DNA of 64,000 nt, from the NCBI GenBank assembly GCA_963746775.1, contig CAVVCK010000001.1:418435-482434 (forward strand), given 5' to 3'. This document shows positions 1 through 56,305 of this stretch, piece after piece. Position numbers and translations under genes: made by a program. This DNA is from an uncultured bacterium. Its GTDB lineage: Bacteria > Patescibacteriota > JABMPQ01 > CAVVCK01. The notes under the pieces were generated by a model. The model had not been told where the DNA came from and did no database searches. It saw only the letters and a list, made by a program, of their open reading frames with translations. Each line of letters starts with the position of its first letter. Position 1 is the stretch's first letter.

Positions 1-459
1 CCTTTAATTTTTAAAGGTGGATAACCTTTTTTTTCTAAATATTCTATATTAGCACCCAATTCCATTAGAGCTTCAACTAATTCTTTAATGGGTCTCTCAC
101 GCATTCTCTCCGATCCATTTAAAATAATCTCTTCTGGTACTAAACAACAGAGAGACGCTGAAAATCGCATAGTAGTACCCGCCGCTCCTACATCTATTTT
201 TCCATCAAATTGAATAAATTTACCTCCATTGCCATAAACTATTATTTCTTTTTTATTCTTCTCAATTTTTATACTTAATTTATTTAAAGCTTCAATTAAA
301 ACTTTACTATCATCACTTTCCGAGTATTCTTTTATAACACTTTTTCCCCTACATAAAGCTGCCATAATCAAAGCTCGATTAGTATAGCTTTTGGAACCAG
401 GCATTACTACTTTGTTGCTATTTAATTTTTTTATTGGAATTATTTCTATTTTTTTCATA
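1..459 (-). CDS. aroA: 3-phosphoshikimate 1-carboxyvinyltransferase (EPSP synthase), N-terminal ~153 aa only; gene continues past window start
   Basis: Reverse translation from ATG at 459 gives MKKIEIIPIKKLNSNKVVMPGSKSYTNRALIMAAL..., the characteristic EPSP synthase N-terminus. The reading frame stays open to position 1. Confidence 0.75.
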
Positions 460-480
460 ATTCATATTTCTCTATTTTTT

Positions 481-513
481 CCGTAGGGGCAGAACAATGT
501 TCTGCCCCTACGG
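481..513. repeat. GC-rich 16-bp-stem palindrome CCGTAGGGGCAGAACA-A-TGTTCTGCCCCTACGG; second copy at 30719-30753
   Basis: Perfect inverted repeat read directly from the sequence. The same 31-bp core CGTAGGGGCAGAACAATGTTCTGCCCCTACG recurs at 30722-30752. It lies between convergently arranged minus-strand genes. Confidence 0.8.
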
Positions 514-519
514 AAAAAA

Positions 520-1836
520 TTATTTCTTTATCAAAGCAAAACTAGTCTCATTATTTTTACTATCCTGTAAATCTGAAGCTAGAATATCCAATCCAAACAA
601 TTCAGCACAAATTCTAGGTGCAATCACACCCACTGATTTTGGTAGTTTATTTTGTGATAAGAGTTTAGCTACCGTAGCTTGATCAGTTAATTTCCCCTTG
701 CCATCTTTTTTTGTAATATTGGGAAATTTTTTTCTCAAAGTATCTTTGCATTGCCGCAAGGTCTGTTCATGAGAAATTATTTTTTTGATTTCTGATAATT
801 TAACACCTCTTCTCACCATTAAATGATGAGATATTACATGATCTATAATTTTTACTACCTTACATTCATACTGAGCCAAGGCTTCCATGCTCTCTGTTAC
901 CGCTCCGCCAACAGAATTATATAAAGCCATCACACCATAGTCTGTCTTACCTTTTTCTAAATTCTTTAAAACATTATCCGAATTATATAAATATTTTATT
1001 TTATACTTTTTCAAACCAAACTCTTCACTATATTTTCTTGCTACTTCTTCATTAAAACTCCCCTTACCCCCCTGAATTCCAATAATTGGAATTTTATGTT
1101 TCTCCTTTAATAATTTGTAATTTATTTTTTTAAATGATTTTTCTATTTTCCTTCGTACTTTCTCACCATAAGGATTTTTAGTTTGCAAATCATAAAAAAG
1201 CTGTTCGCTATCATTACAAGTCTGATTAATAATTTCATTTAATTTTTTAAAACCTAGCGTATCAATCTTAGTTTCTTTTAAATTTAATTCTCCTAAAACC
1301 CGACCAATATAATGTGCTATACTTTGTGACTGGGAAGCAAGTTTGTCGTGCATATCAGCAGATAATTCTACTACTTTTAAATTTCTCCTTTTAAAATATT
1401 TTTTCCAAAAATTATAACTATCCTTTCTCTGCTTTACTTTGCATAAAGTTATTTTTAAATTCTCTACTCCTTCCTTAATACTATCAGGCCCGAACATAGG
1501 ATGAGTACCAATTATTTCACATGATTTTGGCAAATATTTTTTCATTAAATCAATTGGATATACTTTCACCGAACAAGTATCTAAAATTAGAGCTTTGTCA
1601 TTAATATTTTTTGAATTTTTCTTTAAAAATTGTTCAAAAGCCGATATGGGAATACATAAAAATATCACTTCTTTTTTCAAAGCTTCTTTTATATTCACAA
1701 AATTTACACCTTCGACTCTTTCCTTTGGCACAATTTTGCTTTTATTGGCAACATATACATTAAAATCTTTCTTTAAAAATTCCGCCCAGACTTTGCCGAA
1801 TCTTCCGTAGCCTATTATTGAGATGTTTTTTTTCAT
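520..1836 (-). CDS. bifunctional prephenate dehydrogenase (TyrA-like, N-terminal) / prephenate dehydratase (PheA PDT domain, C-terminal) fusion
   Basis: The N-terminus IIGYGRFGKVWAEFL is the Rossmann motif of prephenate/arogenate dehydrogenases. The C-terminal ~200 aa (KIPIIGIQGGKGSFNEEVA...ALYNSVGGAV...) matches the PDT domain. No ACT domain is evident. Confidence 0.6.
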   Translation of the reverse strand: MKKNISIIGYGRFGKVWAEFLKKDFNVYVANKSKIVPKERVEGVNFVNIKEALKKEVIFLCIPISAFEQFLKKNSKNINDKALILDTCSVKVYPIDLMKKYLPKSCEIIGTHPMFGPDSIKEGVENLKITLCKVKQRKDSYNFWKKYFKRRNLKVVELSADMHDKLASQSQSIAHYIGRVLGELNLKETKIDTLGFKKLNEIINQTCNDSEQLFYDLQTKNPYGEKVRRKIEKSFKKINYKLLKEKHKIPIIGIQGGKGSFNEEVARKYSEEFGLKKYKIKYLYNSDNVLKNLEKGKTDYGVMALYNSVGGAVTESMEALAQYECKVVKIIDHVISHHLMVRRGVKLSEIKKIISHEQTLRQCKDTLRKKFPNITKKDGKGKLTDQATVAKLLSQNKLPKSVGVIAPRICAELFGLDILASDLQDSKNNETSFALIKK

Positions 1837-1954
1837 ATATTTTCATGTCTCCCCTTTAATAAGGGGAGATTAAGAGGGGTTTCGTGGGAAAAATAACAGT
1901 ATTTTTATGCCCACAAAACCTCCCCTACCCCTCCTGATTACAAGAGAGGAAATT

Positions 1955-3112
1955 CTAATATTTCTTACAAAACTCATTAAACTCCCCTAACCCTTCTCTC
2001 AAATCTTTCTCCGAACTTGCAAAAGAAATCCTCACATACCCTTCCATCCCAAAGGCTATACCGGGCACCATTGCAACTTTCTTTTTATTCAATAATTTCT
2101 TACAAAATCTAGTCGAATCCTTATCTATTTTAGAAATATCTATAAAAAAATAAAAGGCACCTTTGGGTTTATTAAAACTAATTTTATTGTTATTATTTAA
2201 AATTTTCTCTACTAAATTTCTTCTCTTTTCAAAAATATTGACCATTTTATTAACAAAATCATTACCGTTTTTTAAAACATCTTCCGCTACGACCTGTGCC
2301 AAAGAACAAACATTGCCAGTTTGATGACTTTGCAATTTGCTTATTAAACTAATTATATCTTTTGAAGTTGCCACATAACCTATGCGCAAACCAGTTAGAG
2401 CATGAGATTTAGAAATGCCATTAACCACAATTACTTTATTCTTTTTCTTCTTCATAAATTGAGCAATAGTGTAAAATTTCTCACCAAAAACTAGCTTTTC
2501 ATAAACATCATCAGTAATCACATAAATATTTTCTTTTATGAAAAACTTGGATAATTCTTGTAATTTCTTTCTAGAATAAACTGCTCCTGTCGGATTATTA
2601 GGTGAATTTAGGATTACTGCTCGAGTTTTATTATTAATAGCTTTTTTTGTTTCTTCTAAATCTGGTCCAAAGTTTTTATCAGTTTTAACTATTTTTATTT
2701 TACCCCCAGCTAATTCAATTTGAGCTTGATAACTTACCCAATAAGGAGAATAAACAATCACCTCGTCTCCGGAATTTAAAATGCATTGAAAAATATTATA
2801 TAAAGCTTGCTTACAACCATTAGTTACGACAATATTTTCCGGTCTATAGGATAATCCATTGTCTTTTTTTAATTTCTTACATATTCCATTTTTCAGAGAA
2901 ACTTCTCCTGTAGTTGCTCCATACCTGGTTTTACCATCATCAAAAGCGGTAGTTAGGCTTTTTTTAATAAATTCAGGAGGCGCCAAATCAGGTTCTCCGG
3001 CTGAAAAATTATAGACCCTAAAACCGAAAGATTTAAGTCTCTTAGCTTCAGCATCTATTTCTAACGTTTTTGATGGCTCTATTTTGGTTACTTTATTGTT
3101 TATTCTTTTCAT
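1955..3112 (-). CDS. class I/II PLP-dependent aminotransferase (aspartate/aromatic/prephenate aminotransferase-like)
   Basis: Motifs NSPNNPTGAVYS and SKSHALTGLRIGY (PLP-lysine region). The 385-aa length is typical for this fold. Confidence 0.75.
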   Translation of the reverse strand: MKRINNKVTKIEPSKTLEIDAEAKRLKSFGFRVYNFSAGEPDLAPPEFIKKSLTTAFDDGKTRYGATTGEVSLKNGICKKLKKDNGLSYRPENIVVTNGCKQALYNIFQCILNSGDEVIVYSPYWVSYQAQIELAGGKIKIVKTDKNFGPDLEETKKAINNKTRAVILNSPNNPTGAVYSRKKLQELSKFFIKENIYVITDDVYEKLVFGEKFYTIAQFMKKKKNKVIVVNGISKSHALTGLRIGYVATSKDIISLISKLQSHQTGNVCSLAQVVAEDVLKNGNDFVNKMVNIFEKRRNLVEKILNNNNKISFNKPKGAFYFFIDISKIDKDSTRFCKKLLNKKKVAMVPGIAFGMEGYVRISFASSEKDLREGLGEFNEFCKKY

Positions 3113-3127
3113 TCTTTAAAAATAAAA

Positions 3128-3148
3128 TACCGGCTATATAAGCCGGTA
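3128..3148 (-). terminator. hairpin TACCGGCT-ATATA-AGCCGGTA with T-rich tract on the minus strand, downstream of the RelA/SpoT-like gene
   Basis: 8-bp GC-rich stem seen in the sequence. On the minus strand it is followed by TTTTATTTTT. Confidence 0.4.
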
Positions 3149-3264
3149 TAATAATAAATTTAAAACAAACCGGCTTAGTCGGTAAAAAAATAGAATTTAA
3201 AAATATTTGAAATTATATTTTTCATAATCTTATTATAATTTTTTATATATTAAAGTCAATTATT

Positions 3265-4611
3265 TTATCTTCCGTTTATTGGCTCATATATATATCCCTT
3301 GGGCAATAATCCTGCTTTTTCTAACCTTTTAAGTTGGTCCGTAGAACCATATCTTTTTATTGGTTTTTTGATTTTTTTATCCGGAATAATTTCACTAAGA
3401 AAATTAGTTTTAATATATTCTTTTATATCATCCTCATTTAGACCGGTCTCCTTGCTTGCCTGTTTGCAAATTAAACACAAATAATACTCTGTAAAAGAAC
3501 CAAACAATCTAGTAAAGGCTGATAATTTTTGTACCCCTTTATAAACAGAATGGTTAGCCATACCTCTTTCATTTTCATTACCGGTAATAACAACTTGTAC
3601 CTCAAAAGACCTTTGCACTCTTACATTTTTTTCTTCCCCATTTTTAGGTAGTTTAATGCGTCCTCTTAATTTTAAAGCTCTAAAATTTTTATTAGAAGTA
3701 TTATTTATTTTAGATATTATTATAGGAATATCTAATTCTTGATCTAAAAATATTTTCTCTAATTGTTTAGTCTGCTCTTCGTTCAAAAACTCTACATTCT
3801 GCACATATTCAGTCTCTGCACCATACTCATCTTTAAAATGACTACCTAAGAAACTTATAAGCTCATAAGCATCTTTTTCCGTTTCAACTTCAAATTTTAA
3901 ACCAATACCATCCCTAACAACTTCATCAGCATTTATTTCGGGATATCTGGCAAACTTAGTTATAATACTATCTCGATTCTTTCCCCTAAAACTAATATCA
4001 ACATCGTTTATCCAATTATTATCAGTCAAAATACTATATTCTTCATATTCTGCATCGGGCGATAATTTTTTGTAAAAATGAGTAACTCCATTGCTATCTT
4101 CTCTAAGTATTCTTCTAAATAAATAATCACTTTCATTGATAAAACCATTCATTTCAGCACTATTAAATTCTCTTTCCGCTAAAACTAAAAAAGATAGCGC
4201 ACAATAATAAGGTGCTAATTTTCTGGAAGAACGAGCGTTTTTCAAAAAATTAACCACCTCAATACCCTTCTTAAATCTTTCTATATTAGTTATATTATCC
4301 GGTAAGCTTAAGTTAAGATAATCAGTCAAATATTCTCTTGCTTCTCCAAAACATCTATTTATTTCATCAATCGCTTCTTCCGTATTATCTACATTGAATT
4401 TCCTTGCCACTAAGTCTGCTAAGTTTTTGTCTTTTATGTCCCCGGGTATAAAATAAGCATCCCCTTCACTAACACTTACTCCTTCTATTGCTATACCATG
4501 ACTTTGAACAACTTTTTTAACTTTTCCTTTATTAAATGCACTAGCATCACGTAACCTTTTATCTGGTTGTATTTCATTTAAAGATATTCTGCTGCTTTCT
4601 CTTTCACCCAT
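3265..4611 (-). CDS. RelA/SpoT-domain (nucleotidyltransferase, small-alarmone-synthetase-like) protein with unique N- and C-terminal extensions
   Basis: Motif order matches the RSH synthetase domain:
- ISFRGKNRDSIITKFAR
- VVRDGIGLKFEVETEKDAYELISFL (compare DLIAIRCVMETQSDVY)
- FKDEYGAETEY
- FEVQVVITGNENERGMANH (compare IEIQIRTxxMHxxAE)
No HD, TGS or ACT domains are present. Confidence 0.5.
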   Translation of the reverse strand: MGERESSRISLNEIQPDKRLRDASAFNKGKVKKVVQSHGIAIEGVSVSEGDAYFIPGDIKDKNLADLVARKFNVDNTEEAIDEINRCFGEAREYLTDYLNLSLPDNITNIERFKKGIEVVNFLKNARSSRKLAPYYCALSFLVLAEREFNSAEMNGFINESDYLFRRILREDSNGVTHFYKKLSPDAEYEEYSILTDNNWINDVDISFRGKNRDSIITKFARYPEINADEVVRDGIGLKFEVETEKDAYELISFLGSHFKDEYGAETEYVQNVEFLNEEQTKQLEKIFLDQELDIPIIISKINNTSNKNFRALKLRGRIKLPKNGEEKNVRVQRSFEVQVVITGNENERGMANHSVYKGVQKLSAFTRLFGSFTEYYLCLICKQASKETGLNEDDIKEYIKTNFLSEIIPDKKIKKPIKRYGSTDQLKRLEKAGLLPKGYIYEPINGR

Positions 4612-4615
4612 ATAT

Positions 4616-4993
4616 TTAATTTATAAAAGCTACCGCTTCAATTTCTACTCTGGCTTCTTTAGGTAAGGCTGCTACTTGCACAGTTGCTCTTGCTGGCGGT
4701 TCATTTTCAAAATATGATCCATAAATTTCATTCACTTTTTCGAAATCAACAAGGTCGGTTAAATAAATAGTAGTTTTAACTATTGATCGCATTTTTGTGT
4801 CCGTAGTCTCTAATATTGCTTTTATATTCTCCATTACTTGACGAGTTTGATTTTCTATAGATCCTTCCACCATATTTCCATCTGGTTTCAAAGGAATTTG
4901 ACCTGATACAAATACTAAATCTCCTCCTAAAACAGATTGTGAGTAAGGACCTATAGCTTGTGGCGCCTTATCAGTTGTAAATACTCTTTTCAT
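4616..4993 (-). CDS. ridA: RidA/YjgF family reactive-intermediate deaminase
   Basis: 125 aa. MKRVFTTDKAPQAIGPYSQSV... and the conserved C-terminal RATVQVAALPKEARVEIEAVA are typical of this family. Confidence 0.85.
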   Translation of the reverse strand: MKRVFTTDKAPQAIGPYSQSVLGGDLVFVSGQIPLKPDGNMVEGSIENQTRQVMENIKAILETTDTKMRSIVKTTIYLTDLVDFEKVNEIYGSYFENEPPARATVQVAALPKEARVEIEAVAFIN

Positions 4994-5011
4994 TTGTTTT
5001 AAATTATTTTT

Positions 5012-15184: not shown

Positions 15185-16799
15185 TTATTTTGTATAATTC
15201 TTCCTAAATTTCTCCATAAAAGGAGTTGTCTCTCTCTTTGGCACTTTCATTTTCTTCAATCTTTTCTCAATTTCAGCCTGTGATAATTTAACATTCAATC
15301 TTCTTTTAGATATATTAATTTCAATCACATCACCATTTTTTATAATTCCAATTACTCCACTATTATATCCTTCAGGCTCAATGTGACCAATACAAGCTCC
15401 TCTAGTTCCACCGGAAAAACGGCCATCTGTAAGCAAAGCTACTTTGAGACCTGCACCAGAAATCACTGAGGTAGGTGTCAACATCTCCGGCATACCAGGA
15501 GCACCAGCCGGCCCCATAAAATTAACTACTACTACATCACCATTTTTAATATTTTTATTTTCTACCGCCTTCATTACTGCTTCTTCAGTATTGAATACCT
15601 TGGCTGGTCCGCTAAATTCTAGCATATCTTTCTCTACTGCTGTTTGTTTTATAACCGATGAATTGCAAATATTTCCTTTCAAAACGGCAATACCTCCTTC
15701 TTTGTAATAAGGATTATTCAATGGTCGAATTACATCATTATTTTTAATTTTACCCTTTTGAGCTATTTCTTTTATATTTTTTCCATTTACAGTCTCTGAT
15801 GATTTTAAATATTTTTTTAATCTATTTAAAACTGCTGGAATTCCTCCTGCCTTATCCAAATCTTCCATTACATGCTCACCTGCTGGTCTTATTTTACAAA
15901 TATTGAGCGTAGTTTTAGATATTTTATCAAATAATTCCAATGGCAAATCAATATTCATCTCATTTGCTATAGCAGGTAAATGTAGAGCGGTGTTAGTTGA
16001 CCCCCCAATAGCCATATCAACTCTGATTGCGTTTTCAAAAGCAGCTTTAGTCATAATCTTCCGGGGGTAAATATTTTTCTTTACTAACTGCACAATTTTC
16101 TTGCCGGTCTGATAAGCTTGTTTTTTCTTTTTAGGATCTAGGGCTAGAGTTGTGGCACAACCAGTCAGGGACATACCCAAAACTTCTGTCATACAAGCCA
16201 TAGAATTAGCAGTAAATAATCCTGCGCAAGAACCAGCCCCAGGACAAGCCCGGCATTCTATTTTATAGGCTTCTTTCAAATCCATTTTACCAGCCTTAAC
16301 TTTTCCAACAGCTTCAAAAGCGCCAGATACTAAATCTATGCCTTTCCCGTCAATGCTCCCTTCTTTCATTGCTCCGCCAGTAAGAATTATAGCTGGTAAA
16401 TTTAACCTGCCAGCTGCCATAAGCATACCCGGTGTAATTTTATCGCAATTAGTTACCCCCCACCCAACCGTCCAAAGAATGAGATAACATCATAATTTCT
16501 ATATTATCAGCAATATGATCACGAGAGGGCAGTGACAATCTCATTTCCACATGCATAGCGATACCGTCACACACACCCGGCACTCCCCATTCAAATGGCA
16601 CTCCTCCTCCATCTACAATCCCTCTTTTAACTTCCTTAGTTAATTCATTTAAATGAATATGGCCTGGAATTATATCGTTATAGGAATTGGCAATACCAAT
16701 AAAAGGTTTTTTGAAATCATTATCTCTTAAACCTGTGGCACGAAGTAAGGATCTATGAGGCATTGTTTCAATGCCCTTTTTTAGTTTTTCACTTCTCAT
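15185..16799 (-). CDS. ilvD: dihydroxy-acid dehydratase, split into two ORFs by a +1 frameshift in a C6 (G6 on the coding strand) homopolymer at 16455-16460
   Basis: ORF 16449-16799 encodes the IlvD N-terminus ([23 protein letters not shown]...GIAMHVEM...[10 protein letters not shown]). ORF 15185-16426 continues it ([13 protein letters not shown]...). Removing one G restores [21 protein letters not shown], the conserved [12 protein letters not shown] motif. Confidence 0.8.
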
Positions 16800-30718: not shown

Positions 30719-30753
30719 ACGTAGGGGCAGAACAATGTTCTGCCCCTACGTAA
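30719..30753. repeat. second copy of the 31-bp GC palindrome (TTACGTAGGGGCAGAACAATGTTCTGCCCCTACGTAA)
   Basis: Core identical to 481-513. Lies between tsaD and valS. Confidence 0.8.
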
Positions 30754-53144: not shown

Positions 53145-53240
53145 ATTTATCCAATATAATTATTCTAAAAATCTTTATAATATTATCACATAAAAACAAA
53201 AAAACCAACCCTCAGGCTGGCTTATTTTAAAGCTCATTAT

Positions 53241-53355
53241 GTTGGCGACGACCTACTTTCTCCTACCATAATAGTAGGGTAGCATCGGCGCTGGTAAGTT
53301 TTACTTCTGAGTTCGAGATGAGATCAGGTAGTTCCTTACCGCAAGAGCCACCAAC
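53241..53355 (-). rRNA. rrf: 5S ribosomal RNA
   Basis: Reverse complement GTTGGTGGCTCTTGCGGTAAGGAACTACCTGATCTCATCTCGAACTCAGAAGTAAAAC...CAGCGCCGATGCTACCC matches the 5S consensus. Flanked by the processing stem GCTCATTATGTTGG / CCAACATAATGAGC. Confidence 0.85.
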
Positions 53356-53479
53356 ATAATGAGCTCTAATTATCTTTAACAATTATAAAACGCTAGCCAA
53401 TTAGTACGTTGAAATGTTGAAAATGTTGGAATCAAAATGATTTCAACGGTTTCAACGATTACAACGAATTTTAATACTA

Positions 53480-56305
<2,826 letters not shown>

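Follow-up and report, generated by a model that had tools for sequence, protein, structure and literature searches.

A TyrA-prephenate dehydratase fusion without an ACT domain in Patescibacteriota: a probable bifunctional enzyme of tyrosine and phenylalanine synthesis

The fusion gene, its two halves and its relatives

The DNA considered here is a stretch of 64,000 nucleotides (hereafter the window) from an uncultured bacterium of the Patescibacteriota (assembly GCA_963746775.1, contig CAVVCK010000001.1, positions 418,435 to 482,434), in which a tyrA-pheA fusion gene lies on the minus strand between an aminotransferase gene and aroA. The fusion occupies positions 520..1836 as a single uninterrupted open reading frame (ORF) with an ATG start, coding for 438 amino acids plus the stop codon, and it joins an arogenate/prephenate dehydrogenase module (TyrA; residues 1-245, positions 1102..1836, minus strand) to an ACT-less catalytic module of prephenate dehydratase (PDT; residues 250-438, positions 523..1089, minus strand). 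Such a combination in one protein had been proposed in an earlier note made from the sequence, and it is borne out by the ORF listing of the window, by Pfam and NCBIfam domain searches and by AlphaFold modelling with Foldseek comparison. In Pfam, PDH_N matches residues 47-132 (E 7e-17), with the F420_oxidored profile also matching the N-terminal half, and PDT matches residues 252-438 (E 9e-40; 136.8 bits vs a cut-off of 25.2; model positions 1-178 of 181). The NCBIfam prephenate dehydrogenase models span residues 4-238 and the prephenate dehydratase models residues 253-438, both with scores far under the equivalog cut-offs, so that none of the curated enzymes is closely orthologous to the fusion. 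The AlphaFold model, built with 34 family sequences, has a mean pLDDT of 91.4 and a pTM of 0.71; in it a linker of about 7 residues connects the helix 224-243 to the strand 251-254, with no AroQ domain between the halves. The absence of ACT, likewise claimed in the note, holds: Pfam gave no ACT or CM_2 match in the fusion protein even at E<=1, and the chain ends with ...NNETSFALIKK, 5 residues past the N-x-T-x-F motif of the catalytic Thr. The 61-nt spacer between the fusion and aroA is taken up by a perfect hairpin, so there is no room for a separate or hidden ACT gene. A database protein (P0001) is 100% identical to the window fusion, and an identical protein is encoded on an independent contig.

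The closest solved relative of the N-terminal half is soybean PDH1 (5T95/5T9E; E 7e-29), and Foldseek aligned this half with 5T95 at E 2e-20, a TM score (target) of 0.90 and a root-mean-square deviation (rmsd) of 2.0 Å over about 250 columns. The plant-type TyrA fold is present, including its helical C-terminal domain, and PF26213 (TYRAAT1_C) is precomputed for the family. The dinucleotide motif G9-Y-G11-R-F-G14 (GxGxxG) is invariant in the family alignment and falls in a strand-helix pattern in the model. Also invariant, in 34/34 family members, are S89 and H112 (HPMFGPDS), which align with Ser101 and His124 of the soybean enzyme (GmPDH1), the two residues whose catalytic role is stated in an earlier study (PMC5681985). 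In the soybean PDH1 M219T/N222D mutant structure, residues 219 and 222 stand opposite T206 and D209. The Asp (codon 1210-1212) is invariant in 34/34 family sequences, and it is found at the position of GmPDH1 residue 222 in 92/92 TyrA modules of the fetched loci (48 fused and 44 stand-alone), which read QTCND or a close variant. The stand-alone modules come mainly from Spirochaetia, Bacteroidales and Desulfobulbaceae, those of Spirochaetia being the nearest. According to the same study, residue 222 switches between arogenate and prephenate specificity, as established by mutating enzymes of plants, spirochaetes and archaea: a spirochaete TyrA carrying Asp208 acted as a dehydrogenase on arogenate but not on prephenate, D208N gave it prephenate activity, and an archaeal enzyme gained activity on arogenate through the opposite change (PMC5681985). 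Because of the invariant Asp at the 222 position and the best match to plant and spirochaete enzymes, the N-terminal half is placed in clade I (plant/spirochaete) TyrA and is predicted to be an arogenate dehydrogenase. The end of strand β2 carries Asp in 17/34 members; here it is Asn, followed by Lys-Ser-Lys (N-K-S-K), and from the lack of an acidic residue at this place we infer that the cofactor preference leans towards NADP+.

The C-terminal half was aligned by Foldseek with the PDT catalytic domains of Brucella and Chlorobium (6VH5, 2QMX) at an rmsd of 2.0 Å over 188 columns. It had been asked in the note whether this half might instead be a periplasmic-binding-like domain, or whether an ACT domain might be detectable after all; by Pfam, alignments and Foldseek it is a bona fide PDT, and ACT is found neither in the fusion nor in its 36 intact fused relatives. 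Alignments with the PDTs 3MWB, 6VH5, 2QMX, 4LUB and 2QMW identify the motifs G253xQGGxGSFNE, N307 (the Asn of E-N-S), H356xQ358...Q362C363 (S-H-x-Q-x-x-x-Q-C) and N429xT431xF433, in which T431 (codon 544-546) and F433 correspond to Thr and Phe of T-R-F. The Thr of this motif has been described as critical for PDT catalysis. Among members with 42-83% overall identity the residues G253, Q255, G256, G259-S-F-N-E263, N307, G310, G311 and E315 are invariant, as are H356, Q358, Q362, C363, D425, N429, T431 and F433. The PDT half thus looks catalytic, though non-canonical in some positions that are weighed below. Since the determinants of prephenate vs arogenate dehydratase activity that were mapped in plant enzymes sit in the ACT domain, which is absent here, the sequence of the PDT half is compatible with prephenate, arogenate or both as substrate. 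The isolated E. coli PDT domain is reportedly active and Phe-insensitive without its regulatory domain, and by this token the ACT-less module is predicted to work without regulation.

A search of 5.8 billion proteins gave 997 matches, of which the best 120 clusters (42-100% identity; full-length members of 426-463 aa) all have the architecture PDH_N + TYRAAT1_C + PDT. The source names among the best matches include Parcubacteria, Pacebacteria, Daviesbacteria and Patescibacteria, the closest named relatives being metagenome-assembled genomes (MAGs) of the Parcubacteria group at 63-65% identity, and one JGI record is named 'prephenate dehydrogenase/prephenate dehydratase'. A scan of one genome per species, for which the family alignment served as the query (a single-protein query had given no match), found full-length copies in the candidate phyla radiation (CPR), namely in Saccharibacteria, Woesebacteria, Roizmanbacteria, Levyibacteriota, Gracilibacteria, Peribacteria, Paceibacterota, Dojkabacteria and Microgenomates, and in Obscuribacterales/Melainabacteria, one of the latter on a 2.4 Mb contig. 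Copies were also found in MAGs labelled as cyanobacterium, Alphaproteobacteria, Dormiibacterota, Elusimicrobium, Neomarinimicrobiota, Lentisphaeria and Micrarchaeia archaeon, for some of which a binning error may explain the label. The copy from the MAG labelled Micrarchaeia archaeon (DPANN; L025:7818-9308) has 42% identity, and it represents either inter-domain transfer or a binning error.

About 40 genome loci have the fused architecture. Intact fused ORFs (424-496 aa) are present in 36 loci, and all 36 stop a few residues after N-x-T-x-F, with no ACT. At 6 loci the same modules are encoded by separate overlapping genes in the reverse order, an ACT-less PDT of about 190 aa and then a TyrA of about 250 aa. 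Stand-alone ACT-less PDTs are abundant in Marinimicrobia/Fidelibacterota, where 891 matches were obtained and the top 120 are all of 184-220 aa with PF00800 only. The fusion is a large conserved family and not a singular event, and the databases already contain hundreds of copies under generic names.

Gene neighbourhood and the leader region

The unit begins with a gene of the class Ib aspartate aminotransferase (AAT) type (1955..3112, minus strand; 385 aa; Aminotran_1_2, E 2e-72), which is followed by the fusion and by the 5' part of aroA, encoding 5-enolpyruvylshikimate-3-phosphate (EPSP) synthase (3..458, minus strand; PF00275, E 5e-36), a gene that continues past the window edge; the neighbours had been correctly named in the note. 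The order aminotransferase > fusion > aroA is shared with the relatives at loci L088, L089 and L091 (83%, 64% and 63% identity, respectively). In L089, a full shikimate operon, it continues with aroC, aroK, aroE, aroD, a gene for a chorismate mutase (CM)-PDT-ACT protein, and genes for transketolase, 3-deoxy-D-arabinoheptulosonate 7-phosphate (DAHP) synthase and aroB. Same-strand neighbours were counted around the 36 intact fused ORFs. Upstream (63 genes) there were type II chorismate mutase (CM_2; 11), chorismate synthase (10), class I/II aminotransferase (8), type I dehydroquinase (5) and DAHP synthase (1); downstream (32 genes) there were tyrosyl-tRNA synthetase (TyrRS; 4, above the NCBIfam cut-off), the alpha and beta subunits of phenylalanyl-tRNA synthetase (PheRS; 3 each), EPSP synthase (2) and DAHP synthase (2). 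On a 1.13 Mb contig the order is a compact CM (89 aa) > aminotransferase > fusion > TyrRS. By its gene context the fusion protein is tied to both Phe and Tyr.

The best Protein Data Bank matches of the window aminotransferase are 1O4S, 1J32 and 1BKG (the AATs of T. maritima, P. lapideum and T. thermophilus), and it matches the Arabidopsis prephenate aminotransferase 5WMH with E 4e-71. Class Ib AAT is the class from which prephenate aminotransferases arose, and the window enzyme is a candidate prephenate and/or aromatic aminotransferase. Other CPR loci carry a different, LL-diaminopimelate-aminotransferase-like enzyme that is about 25% identical to it, so the aminotransferase step is conserved as a function and not as an orthologue.

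Upstream of the aminotransferase gene lies a candidate attenuator. A sigma-70-like promoter, TTGACT-16-TATAAT (3232..3259, minus strand), has 11/12 matches and is the best promoter-like site in window positions 1..5000; its -10 box ends 6 nt before the ATG of a small leader ORF, so the transcript may be leaderless. This ORF (3175..3225, minus strand; ATG AAA AAT ATA ATT TCA AAT ATT TTT AAA TTC TAT TTT TTT ACC GAC TAA) has 16 codons and reads MKNIISNIFKFYFFTD*, with 5 Phe and 1 Tyr among its last 8 residues, a richness in these two residues that is reached by 8/783 mini-ORFs in the window (top 1%). The candidate attenuator RNA itself (3117..3177, minus strand) was delineated by a terminator scan and folding. 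In the antiterminator, UAAGCCGGU (3177-3169), which includes the leader stop codon, pairs with ACCGGCUUA over 9 bp (-12.8 kcal/mol). The terminator hairpin AUACCGGCU-UAUAU-AGCCGGUAU (3149-3127; -15.1 kcal/mol) has ACCGGCU as its 5' arm, which is shared with the antiterminator. Both the terminator and the alternative pairing have z scores of about -3 to -4, and the U-run after the terminator hairpin ends 7 nt before the aminotransferase ATG.

Comparable arrangements are frequent in related loci. On the operon strand 32/348 intergenic mini-ORFs are rich in Phe, Tyr or Trp, and a strict terminator follows 14/32 of these vs 3/316 of the others; in the controls, the opposite strand has one aromatic-rich mini-ORF with a terminator, and control residue pairs give 1-3. 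Similar leaders with terminators occur in more than 15 related loci (L004:5927-6120, L014:1165-1233, L044:698-1013, L008:4446-4511, L089:9903-9956 and others), with peptide stretches such as KFYFYFD, NYFWFYFFT, SFYFYFFT and IYFSFYFTDY. They sit in front of genes for the fusion, unfused PDT, CM-PDT-ACT, DAHP synthase, dehydroquinate (DHQ) synthase and a PfkB-family kinase, and a leader with Trp codons sits in front of anthranilate synthase. No Rfam leader, T-box or riboswitch was detected around the genes of the window unit at the gathering threshold or at E<=1, no comparable leader was found before the ilv cluster of the window, and a literature search found no report of such attenuators in CPR bacteria. 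The window attenuator is well supported by this comparative evidence, its function being predicted, and the Phe/Tyr/Trp leaders of CPR, Marinimicrobia and further uncultured lineages have the look of a widespread attenuator class that acts through the ribosome. To judge by the leaders rich in Phe and Tyr, CPR bacteria would make use of classical ribosome-mediated attenuation.

A proposed branch-point enzyme and the competing explanations

The fusion is a real and probably bifunctional enzyme, and the explanation that best accounts for the whole, which we hold to be likely, is that of an arogenate-type dehydrogenase joined to an ACT-less dehydratase at the Tyr/Phe branch point, under the control of an attenuator. 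The protein would act as a cytoplasmic two-domain enzyme, in which the TyrA module would convert arogenate to tyrosine by oxidative decarboxylation with NAD(P)+, and the PDT module would convert prephenate to phenylpyruvate and/or arogenate to phenylalanine by decarboxylation and dehydration. The class Ib aminotransferase encoded upstream would supply arogenate and/or transaminate phenylpyruvate, with aroA encoded downstream. Having no ACT domain, the PDT module should be constitutively active and insensitive to Phe, and since the competing branch enzymes are one polypeptide, they should be made 1:1. Control would have been moved to transcription, through the leader with Phe and Tyr codons and the mutually exclusive antiterminator and terminator hairpins. 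A ribosome arriving at the leader stop codon would mask UAAGCCGGU, so that the terminator forms, while a ribosome stalled on the Phe/Tyr codons would leave UAAGCCGGU free for the antiterminator; read-through would then occur only when charged tRNA-Phe or tRNA-Tyr is scarce.

A more specific proposal is that both halves use arogenate, the single chain being an arogenate dehydrogenase/arogenate dehydratase; taken jointly with the fixed stoichiometry, control by attenuation only and loss of the TRF Arg as an adaptation, it is possible but rather doubtful. If it were true, the fusion together with a small AroQ and a prephenate aminotransferase would make up a compact, plant-like route to Tyr and Phe in CPR, Melainabacteria and Marinimicrobia. 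The Tyr:Phe split would be fixed by 1:1 competing sites, with the charging of Phe- and Tyr-tRNA, sensed by the ribosome, as the sole feedback, and the family-wide loss of the TRF Arg would be a part of the adaptation to an amino-bearing substrate.

Several observations weigh against the likely explanation of a branch-point enzyme under attenuator control. The TRF motif reads TSF here, and its Arg position is Ser, Thr, Tyr, Asn or Ala across the family, with Arg at one locus (about 40 sequences), while the window protein has Tyr in place of the Glu of ENS, for which most other members have His or Gln. A second PDT lies near the fusion in two relatives (L089 and L024), so the fused PDT is not always the sole candidate dehydratase. 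The leader is not at the equivalent place in L089 and L091, the nearest relatives with readable upstream DNA, and in L089 a similar peptide (…IYFSFYFTDY) precedes the CM-PDT-ACT gene instead. The window aminotransferase has Glu12 opposite Lys12 of the T. thermophilus AAT (TtAAT; gapless alignment over TtAAT residues 2-137), and a literature search found no paper describing or assaying the TyrA-PDT architecture. Finally, searches of the 64 kb window by tblastn, by a hidden Markov model built from 21 neighbouring CM genes and with the L089 operon proteins gave no chorismate mutase (best E 0.31); the suggestion in the earlier note to look for this enzyme elsewhere in the genome gave nothing in the window, whereas in many relatives the gene is adjacent to the fusion, and here it may lie beyond the left edge of the window.

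The unconserved TRF Arg and ENS Glu and the second PDTs can also be accommodated if only the TyrA half is enzymatic and the PDT-like half, which has a periplasmic-binding-protein-type fold, has replaced ACT as a sensor for Phe, prephenate or arogenate. PDT-fold proteins with other roles exist, e.g., the GqqA acylase among the Foldseek matches, and TyrA-ACT fusions are known. We regard a sensor as improbable, however: the residues that are invariant are the canonical catalytic and substrate-site ones (Thr of TRF, Asn of ENS, SH.Q..QC), most compact operons lack a further PDT within 8-10 kb, at 3 loci the fusion is associated with pheS and pheT, and the module is a free-standing gene in Marinimicrobia. 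The second PDT of L089 (L089:10064-11113, also L090:7810-8859) is part of a CM_2-PDT-ACT protein with degenerate motifs, in which ENS is R-H-P, SH..QC is GV..QC and N-x-T-R-F is N-H-A-D-F. It may be a mutase that carries a pseudo-enzyme/ACT sensor module, and not a dehydratase; as it has lost the catalytic Thr and Asn, the active dehydratase at that locus is plausibly the fused domain. In L024 (9318-11402, minus strand), a Dormiibacterota MAG, a 695-aa CM_2-PDT-DAHP synthase with canonical ENT and NFTRF is convergent to the fusion. The second PDTs keep two readings alive, a distinct (arogenate) specificity of the fused module or a non-catalytic role, the latter being less likely.

The classical prephenate route, in which the dehydrogenase gives 4-hydroxyphenylpyruvate, the dehydratase gives phenylpyruvate and an aminotransferase finishes both, with arogenate uninvolved, would suit a fusion equally well through the shared prephenate substrate. 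It agrees with the database names (prephenate dehydrogenase / prephenate dehydratase) and with the best NCBIfam models, which are prephenate dehydrogenase equivalogs, though the scores are far under cut-offs. At the place of T. thermophilus residue 12, enzymes competent as prephenate aminotransferases are reported to carry Lys, Arg or Gln; the relatives' aminotransferases have Glu or Ala there, and the window enzyme, with its Glu12, lacks this determinant, which again is in keeping with the prephenate route. Against it stand the nearest stand-alone relatives of the TyrA half, which are Spirochaetia TyrAs of the assayed clade, and the invariant Asp at position 222, which in every tested enzyme of this clade gives arogenate and not prephenate activity, with Asp-to-Asn switching it (PMC5681985); we therefore consider this route unlikely.

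That the fusion is an artefact, i.e., a chimeric assembly, genes merged by a frameshift or a decaying pseudogene, could be suspected from short-read (Logan) assemblies of the same sample, the contigs of which (L001, 1393 bp; L092) end exactly at the hairpin-bearing spacers flanking the fusion gene. This reading is effectively refuted, and we assign it a negligible probability, by the identical protein on an independent contig, by the same continuous architecture in the best 120 homologous clusters of the 997 matches and by intact ORFs at 36 loci from many phyla; the catalytic residues are moreover invariant and the model has a pLDDT of 91.

The branch-point enzyme can be set beside several known systems. 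The closest precedent, and the only described single chain with both TyrA and PheA that was found in a literature search, is the Archaeoglobus fulgidus TyrA-AroQ-PheA-ACT protein (Song, Bonner & Jensen 2005, PMC1173090), which likewise has TyrA at the N-terminus; nothing usable was found in the literature on the characterisation of that enzyme. Unlike the Archaeoglobus protein, the window fusion has no AroQ between its halves and no terminal ACT, so that it is not a member of that architecture, and its TyrA belongs to the plant/spirochaete clade with Asp at position 222. The E. coli P-protein (AroQ-PheA-ACT) and T-protein (AroQ-TyrA) involve the same catalytic families and the same fusing around prephenate, but they join sequential steps, the mutase and one branch, and the P-protein is regulated by Phe via ACT, whereas in the window the competing branch enzymes are joined. 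Canonical bacterial PheA and plant arogenate dehydratase carry an ACT domain with GALV and ESRP motifs, which the PDT half lacks. With the clade-I arogenate dehydrogenases (plant TyrAa, soybean PDH1 and Sediminispirochaeta SsTyrA) the window protein shares the catalytic Ser and His, and D208 of SsTyrA corresponds to D209; unlike the fusion, these enzymes are stand-alone or internally duplicated, and no dehydratase domain was reported for any of them (PMC5681985). The PDT > TyrA pairs of Marinimicrobia/Fidelibacterota have the same modules and motifs (QTCND; N-L-T-L-F) in overlapping genes, but as two polypeptides with PDT first and with the ENS Glu kept, while in the window there is one chain with TyrA first and this Glu replaced. 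The attenuators of E. coli pheL/pheA and pheM/pheST and the putative tyrA attenuators (Song 2005, Table 7) likewise consist of an ORF with Phe(/Tyr) codons, exclusive hairpins and a terminator; the window leader differs from the E. coli ones in that its Phe and Tyr codons are interleaved, its mini-ORF is perhaps on a leaderless transcript and it has no Rfam leader match.

Gene fusions in aromatic amino acid synthesis normally join consecutive steps, or an enzyme and its sensor. Here enzymes that compete for one branch-point intermediate are fused and the Phe sensor is discarded, and one may ask how the flux is split without allostery. CPR bacteria, which are genome-reduced and in which the fusion family is abundant, are usually regarded as amino acid auxotrophs, and the fusion family, together with the nearby ilv genes, marks lineages that keep real biosynthetic capacity. 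The predicted specificity would also extend the plant-like, arogenate-specific TyrA clade to CPR, Melainabacteria and Marinimicrobia, which bears on the question of where plant TyrA came from. A dehydratase that is by nature insensitive to feedback, as predicted here, and a compact module for Tyr and Phe may possibly be useful as parts for metabolic engineering.

Flanking hairpins and other features of the window

The spacer between the fusion and aroA contains a perfect palindromic hairpin of 20-22 bp (476..518; free energy -37.4 kcal/mol, z -11.5) flanked by runs of T and A. The palindrome, (C/A)CGTAGGGGCAGAAC-NNN-GTTCTGCCCCTACG(G/T), has copies at 476-518 and 30719-30751, behind two unrelated genes, which suggests a dispersed, bidirectional terminator-like repeat. 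The spacer between the aminotransferase gene and the fusion (1845..1953, minus strand) forms a GC-rich triple hairpin (-54 kcal/mol, z -6.8) in a genome of 30% GC, and the third hairpin contains a Shine-Dalgarno-like GGGGAG; no Rfam family was found for these hairpins. The spacers of L088 and L091 do not align with those of the window, and other palindromes of the GGGGAG type are abundant there. The idea that the GC-rich spacers flanking the fusion hold a conserved regulatory RNA was dropped, in view of the lack of sequence conservation with relatives.

Some further features were recorded in passing. The 23S and 5S rRNA genes lie at 53240-56299 (minus strand), and an Rfam scan of the 64 kb at the gathering threshold gave no 16S rRNA gene, so that 16S and 23S are apparently unlinked. 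Between RidA and the aminotransferase a 448-aa protein (3265-4611, minus strand) has weak similarity to RelA/SpoT nucleotidyltransferases and to TIGR04552; it is not at that position in L089 or L091. In a Patescibacteria MAG (L002:2575-4245), 6 kb from a TyrA-PDT fusion, one gene call of 556 aa contains both the small subunit of acetolactate synthase (ACT_AHAS_ss, ALS_ss_C) and a class I/II aminotransferase domain. The window also contains an ilvE-ilvD-ilvB-ilvN...ilvC cluster, an unusual biosynthetic capacity for a CPR-like genome, in which ilvD (dihydroxy-acid dehydratase; 15185-16799, minus strand) is split into ORFs of 116 aa and 413 aa lying 22 nt apart, which could reflect a frameshift, a pseudogene or a sequencing error.

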